Origin: Escherichia phage vB_VIPECOMC06
Direction: 5' to 3' (one strand)
DNA length: 64,000 nt
Sequence record: PQ416618.1
The translations under genes were made by a program, and so were the position numbers. Shown here piece by piece: positions 4,586 to 63,321 of this stretch. Below the pieces are notes generated by a model, which made no database searches, was not told where the DNA came from, and saw only the letters and a list, made by a program, of their open reading frames with translations. Every line of letters begins with the position of its first letter. Within the stretch, counting starts at the first letter, position 1.

Positions 4586-5512
4586 TTAACCTACCAAAAT
4601 ACCTGCAGGAGGGTCCAGTAAATATAACTCTTCTCGTAAAGCTTCTTTCTCTAAACGAGCTTCTTCAATTAATCGAACACCATCAACAGTGACGCCACCC
4701 GGTAACATCATACCTTGATGTTTAGCAAGAATTTGTCCATTAAGCTCTTTAGCTAATGCAGTTGCATAATCTTTAACCCAGCGGTTGTTATATGCGCCTT
4801 GTTTAGTTGCAGGATCTTCACCAACTCGACGTCCGATCAAATTATGGTCTGGATTATCATAACGTTCAGAAATAGACCATGAATCACGAGGACCTACTTG
4901 ACCGTACCCTACTGTATTTCCTACCATCTTATGGGTCTCGATATAAGAGCGAACATACGATTCAACGATAATGACATCTTTCTGTCTAAAGTTACCCATT
5001 ACTTTTAATTGCTCGTTTGCAGAGTTAAACCAAAAATCTGGAAGAGGAGCAATCATATCTTGAAGCATACCCATATAAGATACTAATTGAGAATAATACC
5101 CGAGATCAGCGCCAAAAGCGTTCGGGCCGTAGAATTTACCGCAATTACTACCCATACCACCTGAAACACCTGCCATTCCTAAAAGGAAATCAGTGAACCA
5201 TGGATAAGTTGCATTACCATCCATTGAAGTAATAGAGCCAACGTTTGTTCTTATAATTCTTGTTACAGCAAATACGTTAGAACCACGCATATCAAATACG
5301 CCGTGACGGTATTTTTCTTCGTCATCAACAAAAAATACATGGAAACCTTTATTCAACCCGTCAAAATGGTATTCGCCATAAAGTTCTAACGCTCGTGAAA
5401 TACAATCATAAATTTGATCTGTAGTTAATTCAACATTTACAATAGGAGCGCCTAAACGACGTAATATTACGTCCTTTAATTCTTTAGGGTTTTGTGCATT
5501 ATAACCTGACAT
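4586..5512 (-). CDS. 13: Neck protein gp13
   Basis: 308 aa (T4 gp13 309 aa); synteny wac-13-14. Confidence 0.85.
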
Positions 5513-23254: not shown

Positions 23255-23989
23255 ATGGAGCTAATCTTTTTAAGTGGCATCAAACGTAGTGGTAAAGACA
23301 CTACTGCTGATTACATCAATTCAAACTTTAAATCCGTAAAATACCAATTGGCATATCCGATTAAAGACGCTCTAGCAATAGCCTGGGGACGTAGACATGC
23401 TGAAAATCCTGATGTATTCACAGAGTTGAAATACGAATACTTTGAAGGCATTGGATACGACCGTGAAACACCATTAAATCTCAATAAGTTAGATGTTATT
23501 GAATTATTGGAAGAAGCGCTAATTTATTTGCAAAGTCAATATTTACCAATTAATAATGTTAAAGTATTATCATCGTTAGAAGGTGGATATTCGTATCTAG
23601 ATATTAAACCATATGAAGCCCTGCGTGAAGCTATAAATAATATCAACGACACATGGTCAATCCGCCGTCTTATGCAAGCCCTCGGTACGGATGTTGTCGT
23701 TAATTTATTTGACCGTATGTATTGGGTTAAACTTTTTGCATTAAACTATATGGATTATATTGGAAGTGATTTCGATTACTATGTTGTAACCGATACACGT
23801 CAAGTCCATGAAATGGAAACCGCTAGAGCGATGGGTGCTACAGTTATTCATGTGGTTCGCTCTGGTACGGAATCCACTGATAAACATATTACAGAAGCTG
23901 GGTTGCCTATTGAAGAAGGCGATTTAGTTATTACAAACGACGGCTCTTTAGAAGAGCTTTATTCTAAAATTGAAACAATCTTAAGGTAA
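23255..23989 (+). CDS. 1: Deoxynucleoside monophosphate kinase gp1
   Basis: 244 aa; MELIFLSGIKRSGKDTTADYI P-loop and ...AMGATVIHVVR...DLVITNDGSLEEL match T4 gp1 closely. Confidence 0.93.
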   Translation: MELIFLSGIKRSGKDTTADYINSNFKSVKYQLAYPIKDALAIAWGRRHAENPDVFTELKYEYFEGIGYDRETPLNLNKLDVIELLEEALIYLQSQYLPINNVKVLSSLEGGYSYLDIKPYEALREAINNINDTWSIRRLMQALGTDVVVNLFDRMYWVKLFALNYMDYIGSDFDYYVVTDTRQVHEMETARAMGATVIHVVRSGTESTDKHITEAGLPIEEGDLVITNDGSLEELYSKIETILR

Positions 23990-27017: not shown

Positions 27018-27686
27018 ATGTTCCATTACACTTATAAAATAACAAATAAAATTAATAATAAAATCTATATAGGCGCTCATTCTACCGAAAATTTAGATGA
27101 TGGATATATGGGTTCTGGTAAATTATTAAAAAGAGCCCAAGACAAGTATGGTATAGAAAATTTTAATAAAGAAATTTTAGAATTCTTTGACACTAAAGAG
27201 CAGATGTTTGAAGCCGAGAAAAATATCGTAAACGAAGAATTTTTGAATCGTTCTGACGTATATAATTTAAAACTTGGTGGCGAAGGTGGTTGGGACCATT
27301 TAAATACTTACGAATTTAATTATAAAAAGAAAGAAGCCTCTATTAAAGGAGCCAAAGCTTTTAAAGAGAGATTTGATTCTGATGAAGTGCTTCAAGAAAA
27401 ATATCGTAAAATGGGTTCAGAGAAATTAAAGCATCTGTGGACTTTACCTGAATACAGAGAAAAATTCTCTAGCACTAAGTCGTTTTTAAATAAAAATCAT
27501 ACTTCCGAAACTATTGCTAAAATGAAAGATACCCACGCCAGGAACAAACACCAACAAGGCGAGAAAAATTCCCAGTTTGGTACTATGTGGATTCATTCAT
27601 TAGAAGAAAAGAAATCTAAGAAAATTAAGAAAACCGATCCTATTCCGGAAGGTTGGATTAAAGGCTATAAACTAAAATTTAAGTGA
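27018..27686 (+). mobile_element. GIY-YIG homing endonuclease (SegB-like) immediately 3' of the tRNA
   Basis: 222 aa; N-terminal YTYKITNKINNKIYIGAHS GIY-YIG motif; C-terminal NUMOD-like basic repeats; T4 segB (~221 aa) also lies in the tRNA cluster. Confidence 0.75.
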
Positions 27687-29741: not shown

Positions 29742-29776
29742 ATTGGATATTAAACCACCAATTGAAAGGTAATAAT

Positions 29777-30370
29777 ATGAACACACTGAAGAAACTTGTT
29801 GAATTCATCCGCACTAAACTGGGTACTGCTATGGCTAAAAATCTGACTGTCGAAGAACAGTATAACGCAGCTGCAGATAAGTTGATTACCCAAATCAAAG
29901 AACTAAAAACGGCTTCTGTTAAATCTATTAATGAAGAAAAACGTATTCGTGAACTTGTTATTGAAAAGAATAAGCAAGCCGCTTCTAAGGAACGTGAAAT
30001 TCGTAAGCTCTTGGCTGAAGGACAAGATGTTACCATGCATGCTAAGCTTGGTCTTCTGTATCGTCGAACTGCCGAACAACTTAATACAAAAGCCGACGGG
30101 TACGCTGCTATGCGAATTGAAATTGCTCGTAAGGTGGTTGAACTTGATGATGCTCGTCAGAACCTGGCAATCAAACTCGAATACATTCGTGAAACTCGAG
30201 CAGCCAATGCCCTTGGTATCTCTACGGCTGATGATGTAATTGAAATCGCTGCACTGACTAAGGTTGATATCGAAGACACTCTGACTCGTGTTGAAACGTT
30301 CAATGGCACTCCAACTGGTGTCGAAACAACTTCTGCTGATGTACAAGAATATATTAACTCTTTGAAATAA
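29777..30370 (+). CDS. Coiled-coil protein, possibly PspA/IM30-like
   Basis: 197 aa, long heptad-like helical sequence (…[28 protein letters not shown]…[20 protein letters not shown]); resemblance to PspA architecture is by eye only. Confidence 0.4.
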
Positions 30371-30378
30371 AATAATAC

Positions 30379-30400
30379 GGAGGACTCCGGTCCTCCTTTT
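30379..30400 (+). terminator. Rho-independent terminator
   Basis: ggaggac-tccg-gtcctcc hairpin followed by TTTT. Confidence 0.65.
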
Positions 30401-30419
30401 GGATAATAAAGGAGTTAAC

Positions 30420-31016
30420 ATGCGAAACCAAAATAATGATATTGACTCAATGTTCGAAGAGTTCCGAAATAAGGTAAATCCACCTACGTCTTTAGTTGAT
30501 TCATTACGATATGTTGCAACTGGACGTAAATGGTACTGGTCGTCTTCTTATGAGACAACTGAATATGCAAATAACCGAAAATCTTTATTAGCCCCAGGTA
30601 TTATGATTCATGATATCGGAGCTATTGCTAAACTAGTTGCAGACCATGATATTAGATTCACTGATTTCGTTGCTCCTACGTGGTCTGTTTGTTGTTTAAA
30701 CACTGAATGGGACTATATCAGTGAACGCTCTGAAGATTATTATGGTTTTAGAGATAAGCTCTTAAGGTCTAACATGTTTTATATCGATACTGAAGTTCTA
30801 GTCGATAATAAAAAATATTACTTTACGTTAATCGTCGATTCTGAAACTATGTATGAAGGCAAGCCTTTGCTTAAAAGAGTTGATGCTTTAAGTGCTATTG
30901 ATGCGCTTTATGAAACCATGGTTGTTAGTCCTAATTTCACTAACAATTTAATCCTTGAGCAATTTATTATGGAATGTAGAGAATATGTCAAAGCCAACCC
31001 TGTACATGCCAAGTAA
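30420..31016 (+). CDS. Hypothetical protein ending in the FIMECR junction motif
   Basis: 198 aa from MRNQNNDID with AAAGGAG SD; C-terminus ...EQFIMECREYVKANPVHAK. Confidence 0.45.
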   Translation: MRNQNNDIDSMFEEFRNKVNPPTSLVDSLRYVATGRKWYWSSSYETTEYANNRKSLLAPGIMIHDIGAIAKLVADHDIRFTDFVAPTWSVCCLNTEWDYISERSEDYYGFRDKLLRSNMFYIDTEVLVDNKKYYFTLIVDSETMYEGKPLLKRVDALSAIDALYETMVVSPNFTNNLILEQFIMECREYVKANPVHAK

Positions 31017-32839: not shown

Positions 32840-33796
32840 ATGATGTTAGTTATTGGTTCTCGTGCACTTCACTATCATGGACTTATTGATTCTAACGCTA
32901 TCAAAAATAGTGACTGGGACTTTATTGCGGACCAAGGTTCTTGGAATACATTCAAAAATCAAATGATGGGTGTATATGTTCACCAAGATAACCCTGATGT
33001 CCAAGTTTTCAAATGCTTCCATAACGGACGCGAAACTCATTTTGAAGCATATATTGTTCCGGCAATCACTAATGTCCGTGAATTAGTCGGTGAACTCACT
33101 CCTGAAGATTTCACGTCTTCTTACGACCTTTTAAAATACGCCAAGAAAAATTTAACTAAAGACCGTTTGAACGGGTTTTACTGGGCAACTCCTGGGATGT
33201 GTCTTGCAATTAAGATGTCTCATCGTTTCAAGAAAAATAATCCATTCTTTTTAAAGACTATGAACCATATTCAGTATCTTCGTGGTAAAGGTGTTACACT
33301 GAACGATGAACTTACTGAAATTATGCTGAAACGCCAGAAAGAAACCTTGAACTATGCTCACCCAGTTCTTGACACTTCTAAAAGTGCGTTCTTTAAAGAT
33401 GACATCTATACATATGACCATGATACTATTCATGAAGCCATTGCACTAACAGACCGTCCAGCATATACATTTTATATGAAAGACGGTTCTGAAGTCATGA
33501 CCTCACGCGAGAAGTTTGAATCATTACCAGAAATGGTCAAATTGGCCGGTGTATACGAAGAATCATGTGTACTAGCATTAGAACGTTCTCAGATTCCTAA
33601 TGACTTTAAAATTAACCCTGAATCCAGTTTCATGATGGCATTGGAAAAAGTCTGTACAAGCATCACCTCCGGTTGGTTCCGTGAGTATGCCTGGGAAAAC
33701 TACAGCAAAGTAGTAAGTATGTACCAAAGCTTAGGACATGATGATTACGTCAAACGTTTCAAACAAAATTTCCATATGGTAAAACCTTTCAAATAA
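32840..33796 (+). CDS. Hypothetical 318-aa protein, possibly nucleotidyltransferase-fold
   Basis: N-terminus LVIGSRALHYHGLIDSNAIKNSDWDFI loosely fits a pol-beta NTase G-S...D-x-D signature, but the spacing is atypical; GAGGA SD. Confidence 0.35.
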   Translation: MMLVIGSRALHYHGLIDSNAIKNSDWDFIADQGSWNTFKNQMMGVYVHQDNPDVQVFKCFHNGRETHFEAYIVPAITNVRELVGELTPEDFTSSYDLLKYAKKNLTKDRLNGFYWATPGMCLAIKMSHRFKKNNPFFLKTMNHIQYLRGKGVTLNDELTEIMLKRQKETLNYAHPVLDTSKSAFFKDDIYTYDHDTIHEAIALTDRPAYTFYMKDGSEVMTSREKFESLPEMVKLAGVYEESCVLALERSQIPNDFKINPESSFMMALEKVCTSITSGWFREYAWENYSKVVSMYQSLGHDDYVKRFKQNFHMVKPFK

Positions 33797-45068: not shown

Positions 45069-45542
45069 ATGATTATCAATGAAAACTCTTGGCACTTTAA
45101 AATTTATGCCGCGTTCAATAGTACATGGAATCGTCCGAAAACGTTGTGTGTTTATTTTTGGAAAACGTTAATCCCGGTATTGGCTGTTTCAATTATTGGA
45201 TTTGCTATTTTAGCCGCAGTCACAATTATTGGCCAGGAATTTTTAACTAGATTCTTTGTTTTTAGTAGTCTATGGACATTAGTTCCGGCCTCAATTGGCG
45301 TAGGCATTTTAATGGTAGCAGTCATGGCTTTTATTGCTGCCGGGGCGGTAATTGGTCCGTCTTGGTTGTTAGACAAATATAACGACAGAAAATATTATAA
45401 AGAAATTGAGCTCATTGCGCAAAACCAAGAACGAATTAAAAATGGACTTGAACCTATTGAACGTAAGAAATCATTAATAGGTGAATACCTTAAAGCTCGT
45501 AAAGAAAAAGTCTGTCCTACTCTTGAATATAAGGCTAAATGA
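45069..45542 (+). CDS. Integral membrane hypothetical protein
   Basis: 157 aa; three hydrophobic segments; AAGGAA SD. Confidence 0.5.
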   Translation: MIINENSWHFKIYAAFNSTWNRPKTLCVYFWKTLIPVLAVSIIGFAILAAVTIIGQEFLTRFFVFSSLWTLVPASIGVGILMVAVMAFIAAGAVIGPSWLLDKYNDRKYYKEIELIAQNQERIKNGLEPIERKKSLIGEYLKARKEKVCPTLEYKAK

Positions 45543-46528
45543 TGAAAACAATTATGAAAGGCTACTTTGGTAGCCACCTTTATGGAACGTCTACTCCTGA
45601 ATCTGACGTCGATTTTAAAGAAATTTATGTCCCTCACGCTCGTGATATCTTGACCGGTAACGTTAAAGAACACATGAGCAAGAACACGAATAACACATCT
45701 TCTAAGAACACAAAAGACGACGTGGACCATGAGTTGTATAGTCTCAAATATTTCTTTAAACTAGCTGCAGACGGTGAAACCGTCGCATTAGATATGCTTC
45801 ACACTCCACAAAGTCTAGTAGTTAAATCTGATTTGCCTGATGTATGGAAGTATATTCAAGATAACAGGTCTCGTTTCTATACTACTAACATGAAATCTTA
45901 TTTAGGGTATGTCCGTAAGCAAGCTTCTAAATATGGTGTCAAGGGTTCTCGACTGGCTGTTCTTCGTCAAGCCCTTAAACGTTCTAATGAATGGGGACAA
46001 TACTTTGATAATGGTGCAGTAATTCGTTTATCACATATGAAGAATGTTCTGCCTATAGGTGAATTTGCTTCATGGGTTGAAACAGAAAACGAGAAAACAG
46101 GTAAGCAAACATTCTATAATCTGTTAGACCGTAAATTCCAAGACACATTAACCAATAAAGAGTTCAATGCCATCCTGGTTAAACTGGAAGAGAACTATGG
46201 TGAACGTGCTCGTAAGGCAGAAGCTAACGAAGGTATTGACTGGAAAGCATTGAGTCATGCATGTCGTGGTGGACTTCAATTATTGGAAATTTACAAAACC
46301 GGCGACCTGGTTTACCCACTTCAGGATGCTCCATTTATTCTCGATGTTAAGCTTGGTAAACATACTTTTAAAACTGTACAAGAATTCCTAGAAGATATCG
46401 TTGACCAAGTTGAACATGCGTCAGAACAAGCTGCCAAGAACGGTATGCAACAAAAAGTAGATATGAGTTTCTGGGATGACTTCCTTGAACAGGTCTATCT
46501 CGAAAATCATAATTCTTACTATAAATAA
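45539..46528 (+). CDS. Polymerase-beta-superfamily nucleotidyltransferase
   Basis: 329 aa; N-terminal KGYFGSHLYGTSTPESDVDF fits the hG[GS]x(9-13)Dh[DE]h NTase signature (GS...SDVD); downstream acidic residue in DMLH. Confidence 0.6.
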   Translation: MMKTIMKGYFGSHLYGTSTPESDVDFKEIYVPHARDILTGNVKEHMSKNTNNTSSKNTKDDVDHELYSLKYFFKLAADGETVALDMLHTPQSLVVKSDLPDVWKYIQDNRSRFYTTNMKSYLGYVRKQASKYGVKGSRLAVLRQALKRSNEWGQYFDNGAVIRLSHMKNVLPIGEFASWVETENEKTGKQTFYNLLDRKFQDTLTNKEFNAILVKLEENYGERARKAEANEGIDWKALSHACRGGLQLLEIYKTGDLVYPLQDAPFILDVKLGKHTFKTVQEFLEDIVDQVEHASEQAAKNGMQQKVDMSFWDDFLEQVYLENHNSYYK

Positions 46529-46905: not shown

Positions 46906-46942
46906 GACCTATCGAAACGAAATGAGTAAATTGGAGAATAAA

Positions 46943-47923
46943 ATGTTCAACGTTCAAATCAAAAAAGGTATCTATCGTAATAACGAAATCTCTGGTTCTT
47001 ATGTTGCCACAAAGACATGGTTCCCGGCAAAGCTTAATCCTGAATGTTCCCACTTAGGTGATGGTAAAATTTTCGTTATGATTGATGGTTCTGAACGTGG
47101 AGTATGGGTCTTCAAATCAGACATCGTAATGGAAGGAGTTGAGACATCACCAGTTGCAGTTGTTGAAAGCACTGAAGATATGAAAACTCGTATCAACAAA
47201 CGCTTTAAAGTAATGAACATGATGACGAATGGCATTATCGATGGCAAAATTCGTTCACTCATTATTTCAGGTGCAGCTGGTATTGGTAAGACGTATTCTC
47301 TGGATAAAGCACTTAATAACGCTAATGATAATGGTTTCATCAAATACAAAAGCATTAATGGTAAAATCTCTGGTATTGGCCTTTACGAACAACTTTGGCT
47401 CAACCGTGATGCAGACAGCGTTCTCTTAATCGACGACGTTGACGTATTCTCAGATATGGACATCTTGAACCTTCTTAAAGCAGCATTAGATACTGGAGAT
47501 AAACGCAAAGTTTGCTGGAGCACTGCGTCATCTTATCTCGATGATAAGGGTATTGATAAAGAATTTGAGTTTGAAGGTACTATCGTTTTCATTACAAACG
47601 TTGATATCGATAAAGAGTTAGAACGCGGTTCGAAACTTGCTCCACACCTTCAAGCTTTAGTATCTCGTTCAGTGTATCTCGACCTTGGAGTACACTCTAA
47701 TGAAGAGATTATGGTTCGAGTTGAAGATGTAATATTATCTACTGACATGATGCAGAAACGTGGTCTGACAGATGCAGAAACGTATAAAGCATTGTCCTGG
47801 ATGAAGGCTAACGTATCTCGTCTTCGCAATGTATCATTACGTACGGCTCTTTACGTAGCAGATTTTATTTCAACTGATAAAGATGGTTGGGAGGAAATCT
47901 CTGAAGTTACTTTACTGAAATAA
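46943..47923 (+). CDS. P-loop (AAA-like) ATPase
   Basis: 326 aa from MFNVQIKKG; Walker A ISGAAGIGKTYS; Walker B VLLIDDVD. Confidence 0.6.
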   Translation: MFNVQIKKGIYRNNEISGSYVATKTWFPAKLNPECSHLGDGKIFVMIDGSERGVWVFKSDIVMEGVETSPVAVVESTEDMKTRINKRFKVMNMMTNGIIDGKIRSLIISGAAGIGKTYSLDKALNNANDNGFIKYKSINGKISGIGLYEQLWLNRDADSVLLIDDVDVFSDMDILNLLKAALDTGDKRKVCWSTASSYLDDKGIDKEFEFEGTIVFITNVDIDKELERGSKLAPHLQALVSRSVYLDLGVHSNEEIMVRVEDVILSTDMMQKRGLTDAETYKALSWMKANVSRLRNVSLRTALYVADFISTDKDGWEEISEVTLLK

Positions 47924-48997: not shown

Positions 48998-49993
48998 ATG
49001 AGCATTACATCTGATGCGGTAAAACATGAAATTAACGGTTTATGTGCTTCACAGATTAAAGTGTGGTTTAAAGACCATAATGATCGCAGAGCACTTAATT
49101 ATGAGCAAATTGCTATCCAAGTTCATCAATTACTGACTAGTAAATTTGATTTTCATATGCCGTCTGAAATCTATACTAATCTACCGCGAGCGCTTATTAA
49201 AGCGTGTAAAGGTTATGGAAAATCAATGGCTGATGGAATCTTCAGCGCGCTGAATAAACTTAACGTTCTGTCGATGATTAACTCTAACAACATCCTGCGT
49301 AATCTAGGACGTACTGATTTGTTCGGTCGTGAACAGTGTAAAATGCCTTTGAAATGGATTGTTGCTCATCTTAACGAGAACCAAACACGTTTTATGGCTG
49401 TATCAGCACGCTTACAAATGGGCCTAGATCGTCAGATGAACTTTAAAACTCATCCACGTTATTCAGGTTCAACAGACTTTTATAAATGTGAGCTTCAAAA
49501 GGTTGCAGGTAAAACTGTCTTAGTAGTTCGTGTAACGTTTGAAGGACGACGTCAAGGATATTTTGACCTAATCGGCTCTGGTCTTAAACATTGTGGATTT
49601 ATTGACGAAGTTGATATCAAGCGAGACAGCATTGGATACCGTATTGGATATGTTTGTACTCTTAAAGAAGAGATTTCAGGACCAGTACCAGGACTAAAAG
49701 ACGTTAGATATAAAGACGAGCTCGTTGAAGAAATAAAAGAAGTTGAATATGATATCAACCAAGAAGATGCTCTTAAAGACCTTATTGATGAACTAAACCA
49801 AGACGTTATTCCGGTTCAGAAATTTGAATCAAAACATGCTGAGCAAATCAAATACTTTGAAGCTTTGATTAACGAACTTAATGTAACTATTCAACAGACT
49901 GACGATGAAATCTCGCGATTAGCAGGCTTAAACGGTAAAAATAAAACGGAACGAGCTAATCTTATTCAGGTAGTAAAACTTCTTAAGGAATGA
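48998..49993 (+). CDS. Hypothetical 331-aa protein with C-terminal coiled coil
   Basis: Acidic helical C-terminal third; own promoter cassette. Confidence 0.5.
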   Translation: MSITSDAVKHEINGLCASQIKVWFKDHNDRRALNYEQIAIQVHQLLTSKFDFHMPSEIYTNLPRALIKACKGYGKSMADGIFSALNKLNVLSMINSNNILRNLGRTDLFGREQCKMPLKWIVAHLNENQTRFMAVSARLQMGLDRQMNFKTHPRYSGSTDFYKCELQKVAGKTVLVVRVTFEGRRQGYFDLIGSGLKHCGFIDEVDIKRDSIGYRIGYVCTLKEEISGPVPGLKDVRYKDELVEEIKEVEYDINQEDALKDLIDELNQDVIPVQKFESKHAEQIKYFEALINELNVTIQQTDDEISRLAGLNGKNKTERANLIQVVKLLKE

Positions 49994-50048: not shown

Positions 50049-50981
50049 ATGGCTTTTATTACACGTAGAGAACTTATCAAAGAATTTACCTCGAACGCAT
50101 ATACTCCAGGACCTAATCCTATCCGTATGCCTGTAAAGACTCCTGAAGAGATTGAGGAAATCTGTTCATATTATGGGATTAATTCTCGTAAGTTTACTCA
50201 ATTTGAATGCGTTACTAACACACCCGTTAAAGAGTTCATTAAAAATGGTGAGTTCAGCCGTTTATTAGCCAAACAGAAACTTCGTAATTTTTGTATCGGC
50301 GGTGAAGGACAATATTTCGCTAAGCAGTTCAGGAATAACCTTAACAATCTGATGGCCATTGCTTCTCGTATTCGTCCTCAAGCAATTAACATGAAACATT
50401 TGAAATATACTTACGATAAGTTAGAAATCATGGTTATCAGTGAGAACGAGTTCACTCTTAAGTATAAACCTAAGAATGATAACGTTGCTCGTGTATTCCA
50501 CCAAGCGTTGGAAGTTTTAGGTGATAATATCCACCAGATTAAAGCAATTTATTCTCGTGAGCTTAATATTATCGACCCTATCAAGAATAAGGGCCATATC
50601 GCTATCCAGGCTCGTGTATCTATTGGTAAAAAGGTTCCTGCGCCATGGTGGCACAAAGACTCTGAATATTATAAAAATCTTAAAAAGGAAAATGCAACGT
50701 TTGAAGCGTCAATTATTGTCGCCCCGACTATCGGTAAGATTAACGCAGCTTCAGCACAACCTGTTATGTTTAACGGCACGTCTTCGACTAAACTGGAAAT
50801 CTCTAATGGTCTTCTTCCTGCCGAAGATTACTATTATAATCAAATCAAAGCCACTGTGGACCAACTGTCTGTTGAACTTGACAAAGCACAAGCTAAGCTT
50901 CGTGATGCTCAACAAGTAGTTACCAAGCTCCAGTTGCAGTACTCTAAACTTTTTAACGCAATGAATGCATTAAAATCATAA
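50049..50981 (+). CDS. Hypothetical 310-aa protein with C-terminal coiled coil
   Basis: C-terminus LDKAQAKLRDAQQVVTKLQLQYSKLFNAMNALKS; own promoter cassette. Confidence 0.5.
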   Translation: MAFITRRELIKEFTSNAYTPGPNPIRMPVKTPEEIEEICSYYGINSRKFTQFECVTNTPVKEFIKNGEFSRLLAKQKLRNFCIGGEGQYFAKQFRNNLNNLMAIASRIRPQAINMKHLKYTYDKLEIMVISENEFTLKYKPKNDNVARVFHQALEVLGDNIHQIKAIYSRELNIIDPIKNKGHIAIQARVSIGKKVPAPWWHKDSEYYKNLKKENATFEASIIVAPTIGKINAASAQPVMFNGTSSTKLEISNGLLPAEDYYYNQIKATVDQLSVELDKAQAKLRDAQQVVTKLQLQYSKLFNAMNALKS

Positions 50982-51043: not shown

Positions 51044-51994
51044 ATGACACGTTCACATTACATTGATTATTTTGCAGGTCTTATCGCTAACGTTCATGCC
51101 CAACGTGCTTCTGGTTCATTAGGATTTGATGTTCCACACCGAGTTGTAGTAAGTGGTATTCTTCGCGATTTTGGTACATACACAGGCCAAGAAAATCATA
51201 TCTGTAAAGATACTCAGAATGCGTATTCTCATTCATTAGGGACACTGCTTCAATGGTTCAAACGTTCTCGTTTATTATCTTCTACTGTAGCTCGCGATAA
51301 CATTAAAAACTTTATGAAGCCGAGCTTTATTAAATCTGTGACATCTAAAACCGATTTGGTTGAATTTACTATTATTAACGATGTTAAAAAGACTCATTTA
51401 GCTGATTGGTTATCTACCATTCCTGAAACTAAATTTGCTGATAAATTTGCTTGTGAATTCAATAACCAAGTGAATATGCTTTTTAAACATTCTCGTAAAT
51501 TATTCACAGGTGGCGATGATCGTACAAATAAAGTTCATGTTAAAGATTGGGTTACTGCAGTATTCAAACCGACCGGTAATGGTAACGCATCATTGTCAAT
51601 TGATATCCAGGTTCCGTATTACTACTCACGTAATCTCGGCACCATGAAAGCTGAAGAAATTAAGAAGCACAACAAAACCATTCGTTCGCTGTCTTATAAA
51701 CTTCGCATGATGTTAAGAATCATGGACGTGGTAGAAATGTATGATGAAACCGAAGATAACGGTTCAATGTTATTCAGTTCTCGTATTCAAATTAAGCTGA
51801 AGAACCCTAACGAGTATAAGCCTAAGCCTATTAAAGAGACTAAAGCAGAAAAAGCTGATAATTTAAGAGAAGAACGCGAATATCTCAAATCTCGTCTGAA
51901 AGAAGTCGAAGCCCAGATTGCAGAACAAACTAAATCATTAAAAGCTCTGAATGCAAAAGCTGATGGTTTACGAAATGCTATTGAGGTTTTATAA
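51044..51994 (+). CDS. Hypothetical 316-aa protein with C-terminal coiled coil
   Basis: C-terminus EEREYLKSRLKEVEAQIAEQTKSLKALNAKADGLRNAIEVL; own promoter cassette. Confidence 0.5.
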   Translation: MTRSHYIDYFAGLIANVHAQRASGSLGFDVPHRVVVSGILRDFGTYTGQENHICKDTQNAYSHSLGTLLQWFKRSRLLSSTVARDNIKNFMKPSFIKSVTSKTDLVEFTIINDVKKTHLADWLSTIPETKFADKFACEFNNQVNMLFKHSRKLFTGGDDRTNKVHVKDWVTAVFKPTGNGNASLSIDIQVPYYYSRNLGTMKAEEIKKHNKTIRSLSYKLRMMLRIMDVVEMYDETEDNGSMLFSSRIQIKLKNPNEYKPKPIKETKAEKADNLREEREYLKSRLKEVEAQIAEQTKSLKALNAKADGLRNAIEVL

Positions 51995-54262: not shown

Positions 54263-54736
54263 ATGTTATTATCAGGCGCAAAATATAAAGAAGAAAAACA
54301 AAAATTTTATGATGCACAGAATGGTAAGTGTCCTATTTGCCACCGTGAATTAGACCCTGATGTTCAAGGTAACCATCTTGACCACGACCACGAATTAAAC
54401 GGGCCAAAAGCAGGTAGAGTTCGTGGGTTACTCTGTAATCTGTGCAACGCAGCAGAAGGCCAAATGAAGCATAAGTTCAACCGTTCGGGTCTTAAAGGAC
54501 GTGATGTCGACTACCTCGAATGGCTTGAAGCTCTTCTTGCTTATTTGAAACAAGATTATTCTGATAATAATATCCATCCTAATTTTGTTCCAGACAAAAC
54601 TAAAGAGTTCTCAAGACTAGGTAAAGAGGAAATGATGGCCGAGATGCTTCAAAGAGGATTTGAATATAATGAATCTGATACTAAAACACAATTAATAGCT
54701 TCATTCAAAAAGCAGCTTAGAAAGAGTTTAAAATGA
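54263..54736 (+). CDS. 49: Endonuclease VII (Holliday junction resolvase / packaging endonuclease)
   Basis: 157 aa; MLLSGAKYKEEKQKFYDAQNGKCPICHREL...HLDHDHELNGPKAGRVRGLLCNLCNAAEGQMKHKFNRSGLKG matches T4 gp49. Confidence 0.95.
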   Translation: MLLSGAKYKEEKQKFYDAQNGKCPICHRELDPDVQGNHLDHDHELNGPKAGRVRGLLCNLCNAAEGQMKHKFNRSGLKGRDVDYLEWLEALLAYLKQDYSDNNIHPNFVPDKTKEFSRLGKEEMMAEMLQRGFEYNESDTKTQLIASFKKQLRKSLK

Positions 54737-56550
54737 AAATTGAAAAAGAAATTGAAGGATTAATTCATAAAACTAATAAAGATCTTTTGAACGAGAATGC
54801 TAATAAAGATTCTCGTGTTTTTCCAACTCAACGGGACCTTATGGCTGGTATTGTGTCTAAGCACATTGCCAAAAATATGGTCCCGTCTTTTATTATGAAA
54901 GCACATGAAAGCGGAATTATCCATTTCCATGATATTGATTATTCCCCTGCTCTTCCATTTACTAATTGTTGTTTAGTAGATTTAAAGGGAATGCTTGAAA
55001 ATGGGTTTAAGCTAGGTAATGCTCAAATTGAAACGCCTAAATCTATCGGTGTTGCTACTGCAATTATGGCACAAATTACCGCACAGGTTGCTTCCCATCA
55101 ATATGGCGGAACGACTTTTGCTAATGTAGATAAAGTACTTTCTCCTTATGTTAAACGCACCTATGCAAAACATATTGAGGATGCAGAAAAATGGCAAATC
55201 GCTGATGCGTTGAATTATGCCCAATCTAAAACAGAAAAAGACGTATACGATGCATTTCAAGCTTATGAGTATGAAGTAAATACTCTTTTTAGCTCAAACG
55301 GTCAAACGCCTTTTGTAACAATTACATTTGGTACTGGAACTGACTGGACTGAACGAATTATTCAGAAGGCAATTCTTAAAAACCGCATTAAAGGCCTTGG
55401 TCGTGATGGAATAACTCCTATTTTCCCTAAACTTGTTATGTTCGTTGAAGAGGGTGTCAATCTTTATAAAGACGACCCGAACTACGATATTAAGCAGCTT
55501 GCTCTAGAGTGTGCAAGCAAAAGAATGTATCCTGATATTATTTCAGTTAAGAACAATAAAGCTATCACCGGTTCATCTATTCCTGTTTCTCCAATGGGTT
55601 GTCGTAGTTTCTTGAGTGTATGGAAAGATTCGACAGGTAATGAAATTCTTGATGGGCGTAATAATCTTGGTGTTGTAACACTGAATCTTCCTCGTATTGC
55701 GTTAGATTCTTATATTGGAACACAGTTCAATGAACAAAAATTTACTGAATTGTTCAATGAGCGAATGGATCTGTGTTTTGAAGCATTGATGTGTAGAATT
55801 AGTTCCTTAAAAGGAGTTAAAGCTACTGTTGCTCCTATTCTTTACCAAGAAGGTGCATTTGGGGTCCGTCTTAAACCTGATGATGATATAATTGAGTTAT
55901 TTAAAAACGGTAGAAGTTCAGTGTCCTTAGGATACATTGGAATTCACGAATTGAATATTCTTGTCGGACGTGATATTGGACAGGAAATTTTGACTAAAAT
56001 GAATGCTCGTCTTAAGCAGTGGACTGAAAGAACCGGTTTTGCTTTTAGCTTGTATTCTACTCCTGCTGAAAACCTGTGCTATCGATTCTGTAAACTTGAT
56101 ACTGAGAAATATGGAAGGGTAAAAGATGTTACTGATAAAGGCTGGTACACTAATAGTTTCCACGTTTCGGTAGAAGAAAATATTACTCCGTTTGAAAAGA
56201 TTTCTCGCGAAGCCCCATATCATTTCATTGCGACTGGCGGACACATTTCTTATGTTGAACTTCCTGATATGAAAAATAACCTAAAAGGTCTTGAGGCTGT
56301 CTGGGATTATGCTGCGCAACATTTAGATTATTTTGGTGTTAATATGCCGGTAGATAAATGTTTTACGTGTGGAAGTACTCATGAAATGACTCCTACTGAA
56401 AACGGATTTGTTTGTTCTATTTGTGGAGAAACTGATCCTAAAAAGATGAACACAATAAGAAGAACTTGTGGTTATTTGGGAAATCCGAATGAACGCGGAT
56501 TTAATCTCGGCAAAAATAAAGAAATCATGCATAGGGTTAAACACCAATGA
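54733..56550 (+). CDS. nrdD: Anaerobic ribonucleoside-triphosphate reductase NrdD (class III, glycyl radical), uninterrupted
   Basis: 605 aa, same as spliced T4 NrdD; C-terminal Zn site and glycyl radical motif ...RTCGYLG; no intron or intron endonuclease present. Confidence 0.93.
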   Translation: MKIEKEIEGLIHKTNKDLLNENANKDSRVFPTQRDLMAGIVSKHIAKNMVPSFIMKAHESGIIHFHDIDYSPALPFTNCCLVDLKGMLENGFKLGNAQIETPKSIGVATAIMAQITAQVASHQYGGTTFANVDKVLSPYVKRTYAKHIEDAEKWQIADALNYAQSKTEKDVYDAFQAYEYEVNTLFSSNGQTPFVTITFGTGTDWTERIIQKAILKNRIKGLGRDGITPIFPKLVMFVEEGVNLYKDDPNYDIKQLALECASKRMYPDIISVKNNKAITGSSIPVSPMGCRSFLSVWKDSTGNEILDGRNNLGVVTLNLPRIALDSYIGTQFNEQKFTELFNERMDLCFEALMCRISSLKGVKATVAPILYQEGAFGVRLKPDDDIIELFKNGRSSVSLGYIGIHELNILVGRDIGQEILTKMNARLKQWTERTGFAFSLYSTPAENLCYRFCKLDTEKYGRVKDVTDKGWYTNSFHVSVEENITPFEKISREAPYHFIATGGHISYVELPDMKNNLKGLEAVWDYAAQHLDYFGVNMPVDKCFTCGSTHEMTPTENGFVCSICGETDPKKMNTIRRTCGYLGNPNERGFNLGKNKEIMHRVKHQ

Positions 56551-60276: not shown

Positions 60277-60834
60277 ATGACTGAACAAAAACCTAAAAAT
60301 AACTATGTGAATAATAAAGAGCTTCTCGCCGCTATAATCGAGTGGAAAAAGGAGCTCTTAAATAATAAAGACCCAAACAAAATTATTCGTCAGAATGATA
60401 CCATCGGTTTAGCAATTATGCTTATCGCCGAAGGCCTGTCCAAACGTTTCAACTTTTCAGGATATACCCAGTCTTGGAAGCAGGAGATGATTGCAGATGG
60501 GATTGAAGCCTCTATTAAGGGACTTCATAATTTCGACGAAACTAAGTACAATAACCCACATGCATACATAACTCGAGCTTGTTTTAATGCTTTTGTCCAA
60601 CGTATCAAAAAAGAACGTAAGGAAGTTGCAAAGAAATATAGTTACTTCGTTCATAACGTCTACGACAGTCATGACGATGATATGGTAGCGTTGGTAGATG
60701 AAACGTTTATTCAAGACATCTACGATAAAATGACGCATTACGAAGAATCCGCTTATAAAGCTCCTGGGGCTGAAAAGAAGGAAGTTGTTAGCGATTCGCC
60801 TAGTTTGGATTTTTTATATGAGGATGACAATTGA
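60277..60834 (+). CDS. 55: Late-transcription sigma factor gp55
   Basis: 185 aa, same as T4 gp55; [27 protein letters not shown]...[16 protein letters not shown]. Confidence 0.92.
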
Positions 60835-61033
60835 CATCTCTAACTACTTAGAAGAACCTTTTGACGAAGCAATCCCTTATTTGGTAAAACTGTTGGGTCG
60901 TGAATTTAAAATTAATTTTGACATCGACCCTTTGAACCCACATGACGTGTCATTTTCGATAAATGGGACTCCGGTTGAGTATGAGTTCTGTATTGAAGAG
61001 GACGGACGTTTTTATTTTAATTTAATGAGATAA
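60818..61033 (+). CDS. Hypothetical protein
   Basis: 71 aa from MRMTIDIS; overlaps the gene 55 end. Confidence 0.35.
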
Positions 61034-61034
61034 T

Positions 61035-61358
61035 ATGACTACCGAGATTATTGAAAATAAAGAAGCAGAAGATGCAGTAGCTAAAATGCTACAAGAAATC
61101 CAAAAGAAAAATGAAGCTGAAGCACGTAAAAAATCCGAAAAGATTCTTAAAAAGAATCGTTTTGAACTAAACCGTCTTTATGCTCATGCTCAAGAAGCAG
61201 CAATTCAAAACAACTTCGAAGCTTATGAATATGCTATTAAGAAATCTCGGGATATTCTACGACAACCATATAATGACAAGTTAATTAAAATCCAGTGGGT
61301 TACTACACGTCAGGCTATTGAGGACATCATTAATGGCGCTAGTTCAAACAAAGTTTAA
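61035..61358 (+). CDS. Hypothetical helical protein
   Basis: 107 aa ORF. Confidence 0.4.
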   Translation: MTTEIIENKEAEDAVAKMLQEIQKKNEAEARKKSEKILKKNRFELNRLYAHAQEAAIQNNFEAYEYAIKKSRDILRQPYNDKLIKIQWVTTRQAIEDIINGASSNKV

Positions 61359-61539
61359 ACGTCTGAAGTTGAACGCAGGGTTCACCCTTAAATTGGGAGG
61401 TCCTCTTTGTGTTAAAATCTCTGAAAAGGAATATCACGACGGTTCTATTACAGAAATTTGTCCGCCTATTGTAAAGGCAGACCCAAAACAACTCGTGTGG
61501 GTTGATTCATTTCAAGTTAAGAAATGGTGGAAACGATGA
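61333..61539 (+). CDS. Hypothetical protein
   Basis: 68 aa from MALVQTKF with GAGGA SD. Confidence 0.35.
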   Translation: MALVQTKFKRLKLNAGFTLKLGGPLCVKISEKEYHDGSITEICPPIVKADPKQLVWVDSFQVKKWWKR

Positions 61540-61751
61540 GAGAAATCGATTTAGGTATTTTCTGAGAGGTGATTATGCATGACGAACGACCTGACCTCTG
61601 AAAATTTCGATAAAATCCGTAAAGGCAAAGCAGAAAGAATGAGACGTTTTAAAGAGTCTTATGATAAAGCTAAAGCCGAAGGAACTATTACATACAAGCC
61701 CATTCGATTTAAAAGTTCAAATGAGCCTCTGTACGGTGTACTATGTGGATA

Positions 61752-61776
61752 GGAACTCTTCGGAGTTCCTTTTTTG
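61752..61776 (+). terminator. Rho-independent terminator
   Basis: ggaactc-ttcg-gagttcc hairpin followed by TTTTTT. Confidence 0.7.
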
Positions 61777-61798
61777 CTTTATAAACGGATGATAGAAT
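61771..61798 (+). promoter_or_regulatory. MotA-dependent middle promoter for gene 47
   Basis: tttTGCTTTA (MotA box) followed about 12 bp later by TAGAAT (-10), upstream of the gene 47 start at 61822. Confidence 0.5.
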
Positions 61799-61821
61799 GA
61801 ATTAACTAATGAGGAAATAAT

Positions 61822-62841
61822 ATGAAAATTTTAAATTTAGGTGATTGGCATTTAGGTGTTAAAGCTGATGATGAGTGGGTTCAATCCATTCAGTTGGATG
61901 GAATTAAGCAGGCGATAGAATATTCTAAGAAAAATGGAATTACTACATGGATTCAATACGGTGATATTTTTGATGTGCGAAAAGCAATCACGCATAAAAC
62001 TATGGAGTTCGCACGTGAAATAGTTCAAATGCTTGATGATGCTGGTATTACCCTACATACTGTTGTAGGAAACCATGATATGCACTTTAAAAATACTTTA
62101 ACTCCAAACGCTTCTACTGAGCTTTTAGCTAAATATCCTAATGTTAAAGTATATGATAAGCCTACTACAGTAGATTTTGACGGATGTTTGATTGATTTAA
62201 TTCCTTGGATGTGCGAAGAAAATACTGGTGAAATTCTTGAACATATCAAAACTTCATCTGCTTCTTTTTGTGTTGGGCACTGGGAACTGAATGGCTTTTA
62301 TTTCTATAAAGGAATGAAGTCTCATGGGCTTGAACCTGATTTCTTAAAGACCTATAAACAAGTCTGGTCCGGCCACTTCCACACAATCTCTGAAGCTGCT
62401 AACGTCAAATATATTGGGACACCATGGACACTTACTGCAGGTGATGAGAATGACCCGCGCGGATTCTGGGTATTTGACACTGATGTTGAACGTATGGAAT
62501 TTATTCCTAATGAAACAACATGGCATCGACGAATCACTTATCCGTTTAAAGGCAAAATCAATTATTCTGATTATACTAATCTAGCCGTACGTGTTATAGT
62601 ATCAGAAATTGATTCAGAGTTGACTAAGTTTGAATCTGAACTTGAAAAAGTAGTTCACTCTCTTCGTATGGTTTCTAAAGTTGATAACAGTGTTGAATCT
62701 GATGATGACCAGGAAATCGAGATTAAATCACTTCAAGATATCATTAAAGAATATATTGACGCGATTCCAGATATCTCAGACGAAGACAGAGAAGCGCTGG
62801 TCAAATATTCTAACGAACTTTATATTGAGGCAACACAATGA
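61822..62841 (+). CDS. 47: Recombination endonuclease subunit gp47 (Mre11-like)
   Basis: 339 aa, same as T4 gp47; phosphoesterase motifs LGDWHLG, GDIFD, GNHD. Confidence 0.93.
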   Translation: MKILNLGDWHLGVKADDEWVQSIQLDGIKQAIEYSKKNGITTWIQYGDIFDVRKAITHKTMEFAREIVQMLDDAGITLHTVVGNHDMHFKNTLTPNASTELLAKYPNVKVYDKPTTVDFDGCLIDLIPWMCEENTGEILEHIKTSSASFCVGHWELNGFYFYKGMKSHGLEPDFLKTYKQVWSGHFHTISEAANVKYIGTPWTLTAGDENDPRGFWVFDTDVERMEFIPNETTWHRRITYPFKGKINYSDYTNLAVRVIVSEIDSELTKFESELEKVVHSLRMVSKVDNSVESDDDQEIEIKSLQDIIKEYIDAIPDISDEDREALVKYSNELYIEATQ

Positions 62842-63095
62842 CTTTAGATGAATTTAACAATGCTGGGCTTGGGCTTGAAGTTGAAATGGACGTTAAAGAT
62901 GATGACGGATTCGAGAACACTATCAAGTATTGGATTGAGCCATTACGCGTTGAAGGCAATGAAGTTAAAGCAGTTCATGTCTGCACCGACTGGGCTATTG
63001 AATTTAGCTTTAATATAATGGACAACGATACTCCTGGCTCTATTCTTAAAATGGCTGAAGCATGTATTGAGGACGCGTATAATGACGAAGACTGA
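62838..63095 (+). CDS. Hypothetical acidic protein
   Basis: 85 aa; ATGA overlap with gene 47. Confidence 0.4.
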   Translation: MTLDEFNNAGLGLEVEMDVKDDDGFENTIKYWIEPLRVEGNEVKAVHVCTDWAIEFSFNIMDNDTPGSILKMAEACIEDAYNDED

Positions 63096-63321
63096 TTATG
63101 AAATCCATCGTCATGAATTTAGTATTGGCGACGGTTATATTGGTGTCGTTGAATGGACTGAGAATTACGAGGAATCAACTCCTCGTTTCTTTGGAACCAT
63201 GTATGTTACCTGTGAGTACGCACCAGGTGTTGTCATGTATGCAGAACTAGATGAATATTTTGCTGATAGAGATGACATGTTAAAATATGTAGAGGACTTC
63301 ATTCGAAGAGAATACATATGA
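63067..63321 (+). CDS. Hypothetical protein
   Basis: 84 aa; ends in an ATGA overlap with the gene 46 start. Confidence 0.4.
   Translation: MRTRIMTKTDYEIHRHEFSIGDGYIGVVEWTENYEESTPRFFGTMYVTCEYAPGVVMYAELDEYFADRDDMLKYVEDFIRREYI

Follow-up and report, generated by a model that had tools for sequence, protein, structure and literature searches.

Gene order and transcription signals between genes 55 and 47

Between gene 55 and gene 47 of the window, as the whole 64,000-nucleotide stretch of phage DNA analysed here is called, four small open reading frames (ORFs) of 71, 107, 68 and 57 amino acids were registered by means of ORF listing and direct reading of the sequence, and the same two sources gave no ORF of about 400 aa in this interval. 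The plus strand of the window corresponds to the early-gene direction of T4, and the locus is read on this strand as follows:

60277–60834, plus strand: gene 55, late-transcription sigma factor, 185 aa, 89% identity to T4 gp55
60818–61033, plus strand: ortholog of T4 a-gt.5, 71 aa, Pfam DUF5491 (E = 5.8e-13), PHROG 1169, 47% identity to T4 a-gt.5
61035–61358, plus strand: ortholog of T4 a-gt.4, 107 aa, Pfam DUF2654 (E = 1e-27), 55% identity to T4 a-gt.4
61333–61539, plus strand: ortholog of T4 a-gt.3, 68 aa, PHROG 1648 (E = 1.6e-34), 69% identity to T4 a-gt.3
61579–61752, plus strand: ortholog of T4 a-gt.2, 57 aa, Pfam DUF5486 (E = 4.5e-28), 65% identity to T4 a-gt.2
61751–61776, plus strand: predicted intrinsic terminator with an 8-bp stem, UUCG loop and T6 run (terminator scan and folding)
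61775–61798, plus strand: putative middle promoter for genes 47 and 46, MotA-box TGCTTTA with −10 element TAGAAT (pattern match)
61822–62841, plus strand: gene 47, SbcD-like recombination nuclease subunit, 339 aa, Pfam Metallophos, 86% identity to T4 gp47

A gp55 at least 99% identical to that of the window is present in 146 phage records, and the four listed in this band come from coliphages or Shigella phages, LF82-2 included. The start of the a-gt.5 ortholog overlaps the end of gene 55, the a-gt.4 and a-gt.3 orthologs share 26 nt, as do their T4 counterparts, and stop and start codons overlap or abut within the whole group from gene 55 to a-gt.2, which would form one tightly packed transcription unit ending at the terminator. 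Between the a-gt.3 and a-gt.2 orthologs the window has a 39-nt spacer (61540–61578), while the corresponding genes of T4 overlap. The a-gt.3 ortholog gave no Pfam match, and a literature search on a-gt.2 to a-gt.5 found nothing.

The 69 bp separating a-gt.2 from gene 47 contain the terminator and the putative promoter. The hairpin AGGAACTC-TTCG-GAGTTCCT (in RNA notation AGGAACTC-UUCG-GAGUUCCU) occupies positions 61751–61770 and is followed by TTTTTT; its folding energy is −13.9 kcal/mol (z = −3.3), and none of 200 shuffled sequences folded as well. The stop codon of a-gt.2 is embedded in this hairpin. Judging from its sequence, the element at 61751–61776 has all the features of an intrinsic (Rho-independent) terminator, namely a GC-rich hairpin and a T run located directly past a stop codon.

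Directly 3′ of the terminator, at 61773–61798, lies TTTGCTTTA-N11-TAGAAT. In T4 the MotA box has the form (a/t)(a/t)TGCTTtA and is located about 12 bp upstream of the sigma-70 −10 element, and the sequence found here fits such a MotA-dependent middle promoter, which makes it a putative one. The pattern TGCTTYA-N11-13-TANNNT occurs eight times in the window (at 2414, 3714, 7446 on the minus strand, 26818, 27388, 41520, 54645 and 61775) versus 1.6 occurrences expected, and not a single one of 100 shuffled sequences reached eight. Five of the eight matches are on the plus strand, within that half of the window which contains the early genes. The gene motA is annotated in pEK20, which is the closest complete genome to the window. 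Gene 47 is preceded by a good Shine-Dalgarno sequence, and transcription of genes 47 and 46 would be re-initiated from the middle promoter past the terminator. Most likely, the predicted terminator and promoter serve as boundaries of transcription units in the 55–47 interval.

Search for T-even glucosyltransferases

According to the original prediction, T4 carries the gene of its approximately 400-aa alpha-glucosyltransferase (a-gt) between genes 47 and 55, and in the window this place is left to small ORFs of 71, 107, 68 and about 57 aa and a terminator. The annotation of T4 agrees with the first statement (400-aa alpha-glucosyltransferase), coordinates and lengths given for the second proved to be exact, and a-gt was detected between genes 55 and 47 neither by ORF listing nor by tblastn.

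All searches for a-gt, b-gt and ba-gt were performed at the sequence level with tblastn. Over the 64 kb of the window T4 a-gt gave no significant match, the best E-value with default settings being 0.53, and at E ≤ 0.1 no match was obtained there for T4 a-gt, T4 b-gt or ba-gt of RB14 (T2-type). The same absence of all three genes (tblastn, E ≤ 0.1) was registered in positions 1–70500 and 133000–169226 of pEK20 and in the segments of JS09 and RB69. Counterparts of two other T4 genes, 47.1 and mobB, are likewise missing from the window. With word size 2 and the threshold raised to E ≤ 100, a-gt did match positions 47069–47308 (E = 0.011); we consider this a chance match, as it is gone with default settings and falls within an ORF of 333 aa that encodes a P-loop ATPase (domain AAA_22 and related ones).

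Nine large uncharacterised non-structural early ORFs (27018–27686, 29762–30370, 30399–31016, 32840–33796, 45539–46528, 46922–47923, 48998–49993, 50049–50981 and 51044–51994) were scanned against Pfam and PHROG, and no glycosyltransferase family was found among them. Other assignments were obtained on the way. In the tRNA/internal-protein region, Pfam recognised a GIY-YIG / SegE-like endonuclease domain (E = 1.3e-6) in the 222-aa ORF at 27018–27686 (plus strand), which probably encodes a homing endonuclease of the seg type. The product of 45539–46528 (plus strand) is an RlaP-like nucleotidyltransferase of the pol-beta family (RNA-repair pathway), paired with the neighbouring 46922–47923 (plus strand), a P-loop AAA ATPase that has an HTH-like stretch at its C-terminus. 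Early plus-strand ORFs 32840–33796, 48998–49993, 50049–50981 and 51044–51994, which are 310–331 aa long, are conserved in phages (PHROGs 2141, 2257, 2351 and 1435; DUF7275/7277, DUF7235).

Across the phage collection homologs of a-gt were found in 657 records. In 502 of them identity to T4 a-gt is at least 90%, and this set closely matches the 505 records with gp55 90–95% identical to that of the window. Of the other records, about 143 come from Klebsiella phages, with 66% identity, and the remainder from Erwinia phage Cronus and a few cyanophages or others. There is no phage of the Mosigvirus group among the 60 matches listed out of 657.

Relatives of the phage and modification of their DNA

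The 2.7 kb around the interval are 98–99% identical over their full length to phages of the Mosigvirus JS09 species, namely pEK20 (98.9%), JQD51, PNJ-6, ST0 and JS09, and a 25 kb stretch of the window shows about 97% identity to JS09 and its relatives. Six contigs with gp47 identical to that of the window are 96–99% identical to the window, and no record identical to it was present among the database matches. This identity, together with the collinearity with RB69 described in the last section, assigns the window to an RB69/JS09-type T4-like phage of the genus Mosigvirus.

The content of homing endonucleases varies even among near-identical Mosigviruses, since pEK20 and two other relatives differ in this respect from the window. 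In pEK20 a MobD-like homing endonuclease is located between 46.2 and 46 (L001, 5883–6743), where the window (62838–63321) and JS09 have a short 46.1 gene. The gene nrdD, which is intact in the window (54733–56550), has homing endonucleases next to it or within it in the relatives L014 and L016.

Within the genus, RB69 is the phage that has been studied by experiment. That it has no homolog of a-gt, b-gt or ba-gt was reported by Thomas et al. 2018 (PMC6024577) and again in PMC13326640. Thomas et al. described arabose on RB69 DNA and proposed ORF003c, with homologs in JS09, as a candidate GT-B arabinosyltransferase. The chemistry was later revised: cytosines of RB69 are fully replaced by mono- or di-arabinosylated 5-hydroxycytosine (Lee et al. 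2026 NAR, PMC13326640). In the same work gp48 of RB69 was experimentally shown to be a flavin-associated 5hodCMP synthase, phosphorylation of 5hodCMP was ascribed to the gp1-type kinase gp159 (NP_861849), and gp46:47 and gp3 were proposed as the first and second arabinosyltransferases. Genes of NDP-arabinose synthesis in this system are gp51–53 with gp55. The same modification, with a mono:di ratio of 1:4, was found in Mosigvirus NP, the DNA of which is cleaved by the GmrSD-family type IV enzyme BrxU (2026 AEM paper, PMC13390438). The BASEL study already treats arabinosylation as a trait of the genus.

Inside the 64 kb window, one component of the published arabinosyl-5-hydroxycytosine pathway was found and no homologs of the other arabinosylation genes:

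23255–23989, plus strand: gene 1, dNMP kinase, Pfam DNMK (E = 1.4e-96), syntenic with JS09_026

The annotation of JS09_026 notes its similarity to RB69 NP_861849, and the window thus appears to encode the gp1-type dNMP kinase of the RB69-type system. In JS09 and pEK20 the region between gene 43 and uvsX contains genes for an arabinose-5-phosphate isomerase, a 561-aa NTP-transferase/kinase, a small phosphatase-like protein, a peptidase-like protein, a thymidylate-synthase homolog, the 299-aa araGT1 and a thymidylate-kinase-like protein, and a 366-aa homolog of ORF003c adjoins gene 39. The pEK20 proteins of the 43–uvsX region are 95–100% identical to RB69 gp45, gp46:47, gp48, gp50–53 and gp55, genes of the system occur at this level of identity in JS09 as well, and in RB69 itself the arabinosylation genes were seen for the 43–uvsX cluster. 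The ThyA homolog of pEK20 and JS09 has 99% identity to RB69 gp48 versus 24% to T4 gp42, and dCTPase gp56 is present in the relatives alongside the arabinosylation cluster. Directly past gene 43, genes of SIS isomerase and NTP_transferase were found in all six contigs with window-identical gp47, and araGT1 of at least 95% identity occurs in 153 phage records versus 152 records with gp55 at least 95% identical to that of the window. Because these genes lie outside the window, the cluster can be ascribed to the present phage by proxy, from relatives that are 96–99% identical, and on this ground we infer that the phage carries it in the remainder of its genome.

Together with the literature, these data point to the following route. 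The thymidylate-synthase homolog (gp48 in RB69) would convert dCMP to 5-hydroxy-dCMP, which would then be phosphorylated by the gp1 kinase encoded in the window; once it is incorporated into DNA, two GT-B arabinosyltransferases would attach a single arabinose or a pair of them, drawn from a nucleotide-arabinose donor made by the cluster between genes 43 and uvsX. Thus, very probably, we deal with an RB69/JS09-type Mosigvirus, which has no a-gt at 55–47 and relies on other genes to produce arabinosyl-5-hydroxycytosine instead of glucosyl-hydroxymethylcytosine (hmC). This explanation joins what was observed here (content of the interval, orthology to T4, identity to RB69, absence of glucosyltransferases, arabinosylation genes of the relatives) with chemistry taken from the literature.

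Two other ways of modifying the DNA, and one other origin of the small ORFs, have to be weighed against this explanation. Enzymes of the GT-B type can diverge past recognition by BLAST, ORF003c was linked to a-gt by Thomas et al. with profile methods, and several ORFs of 300–330 aa in the window have no assigned function, so that one might think of a divergent or relocated a-gt ortholog elsewhere in the genome and of DNA that is still alpha-glucosylated. Such an ortholog was named as a possible objection along with the original prediction, and tblastn found none in the window or the rest of pEK20. Taken with the scan of nine ORFs, which revealed no Pfam glycosyltransferase, with the location of the sole marginal match (word size 2 only) in the P-loop ATPase ORF, and with DNA of RB69 and NP bearing arabinose derivatives rather than glucose (PMC13326640, PMC13390438), this makes the idea essentially refuted, its remaining chance being very slight. 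The other objection concerned a small ORF being a piece of a split a-gt. Indeed, the gene names (a-gt.x) hint at remnants of a decayed or split a-gt, and a-gt residues 300–342 can be aligned with positions 60815–60946 within the a-gt.5 ortholog, at the noise level of tblastn (E = 1.4). However, every small ORF belongs to a Pfam or PHROG family of its own and has a full-length ortholog (47–69% identity) in T4, where a-gt.5, a-gt.4, a-gt.3 and a-gt.2 adjoin an intact a-gt; genes coexisting with intact a-gt are not its fragments, and the place of a-gt is taken by the 69-bp spacer, with nothing in it besides terminator and promoter. The probability of this origin is practically nil.

A further possibility is that hmC is glucosylated by b-gt and/or ba-gt only, as in Karamvirus CC31, which is reported to have homologs of both, or that cytosine is unmodified. 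A Karamvirus also lacks a-gt at 55–47, which speaks in favor of such a variant. It is nevertheless highly improbable, since neither b-gt nor ba-gt has a match in pEK20, JS09 or RB69, the ThyA homolog of the relatives is nearly identical to the 5hodCMP synthase of RB69 and remote from T4 gp42, and the relatives have dCTPase gp56 as well as the arabinosylation cluster.

With arabinosyl-5-hydroxycytosine as the preferred reading, the suggestion that the modification of this phage may differ from that of T4 is borne out by the mono- and di-arabinosylated 5-hydroxycytosine of the genus members RB69 and NP (PMC6024577, PMC13326640, PMC13390438), and the expected influence on sensitivity to type IV restriction is a consequence already established for the genus. 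The difference goes deeper than the pattern of hmC modification, as the base itself is 5-hydroxycytosine and not hydroxymethylcytosine. Once the genus is known, arabinosyl-5-hydroxycytosine becomes the likely DNA chemistry in place of glucosyl-hydroxymethylcytosine, and it predicts resistance to most type II restriction enzymes, preserved sensitivity to BrxU and other broad type IV enzymes of the GmrSD family, and behavior unlike that of T4 toward defences specific for glucosyl-hmC. The layout without a-gt is normal for RB69-like (Mosigvirus) phages and, like their DNA chemistry, already known; as all this has been published since 2018 and refined in 2026, the window represents another member of the group and brings no new biology.

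Comparison with T4, other genera and RB69

In T4 the genes follow in the order 55, a-gt.5, a-gt.4, a-gt.3, a-gt.2, mobB, a-gt, 47.1, 47. In a DNA alignment, collinearity of the window with T4 begins at the end of gene 55 and reaches past a-gt.2 to the terminator, beyond which the window passes straight to gene 47; in both phages a-gt.2 is followed by a UUCG hairpin terminator and then by a MotA-box module. The difference consists in 2283 extra bp of T4, which encode mobB (a homing endonuclease of the HNH type), the alpha-glucosyltransferase of 400 aa and 47.1, and in a second terminator/promoter module of T4 past a-gt. These three genes do not belong to the Mosigvirus genome type. Klebsiella phage Roth79 has a-gt at the same locus without mobB or 47.1, whereas in Gaprivervirus SP18 and a Karamvirus gene 55 is followed by small ORFs and gene 47 with no a-gt; given these two cases, the lack of a-gt between genes 55 and 47 is by itself not diagnostic. 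In SP18 (L010, about 5140–5278) an unannotated 47.1-like ORF (MELFLGYVVLFMAFY...) was noticed between the promoter module and gene 47, which the window does not have.

In T4, Roth79, SP18 and a Karamvirus, equivalent MotA-box modules are located either ahead of gene 47 or around a-gt. The complete module, composed of a UUCG hairpin, T run, TGCTTTA and −10 element, is located on both sides of a-gt in T4 (L002, 5925–5975 and 8032–8075) and in Roth79 (L009, 2929–2990 and 4195–4260), and is single in phages without a-gt, including the window (61751–61798). The 5′ end of the window module resembles the upstream copy of T4, its 3′ end the downstream one. Since duplicated regulatory modules flank a-gt in T4 and Roth79, this gene looks like a self-contained cassette, and the sequences suggest that duplicated terminator/middle-promoter modules are its bounds.

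The state without a-gt might have arisen by deletion of an ancestral a-gt cassette via recombination between the flanking terminator/middle-promoter modules. The paired modules around a-gt in T4 and Roth79, the only copy in a-gt-less phages and the hybrid look of this copy in the window are all in line with such an event. However, a-gt is absent from Mosigvirus, Gaprivervirus, Karamvirus and, according to annotation notes, JS98-like phages, and its insertion in the lineages of Tequatrovirus and Klebsiella phages fits equally well; we regard the deletion as possible, though less likely than not. Shuffling mediated by regulatory cassettes is reported for T4-type phages (PMC2839356). Rather unlikely in our estimation is a general role of the hairpin-terminator and MotA-promoter module before gene 47 as a recombination landing pad for DNA-modification cassettes (a-gt with or without mobB), gained and lost between T4-like genera. 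If it is nevertheless true, the hybrid-looking module of the window would be a scar or an empty site of cassette exchange, and switching of the hypermodification type would be linked to shuffling of regulatory cassettes.

The RB69-type arabosyl-5-hydroxycytosine system as a whole is represented in the window by the dNMP kinase of gene 1, and it is in this single component that likeness within the window begins and ends. In the record of RB69 araGT1 is divided into two ORFs, whereas JS09 and pEK20 have a single ORF of 299 aa; the split was attributed to a sequencing error (PMC13326640). At the 55–47 locus the order 55, a-gt.5, a-gt.4, a-gt.3, a-gt.2, 47 (RB69p067–p071 and p066) is the same in RB69 and the window, as is the 69-bp spacer between a-gt.2 and gene 47. 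The interval 60835–61821 (987 bp) is 98.4% identical to RB69 without gaps, and only point substitutions distinguish the two phages between genes 55 and 47. Over 60813–62841, which takes in the overlapping end of gene 55 and all of gene 47, identity to RB69 is 92.4%, which is below that of the interval, and the best overall matches of the window are phages of the JS09 species.
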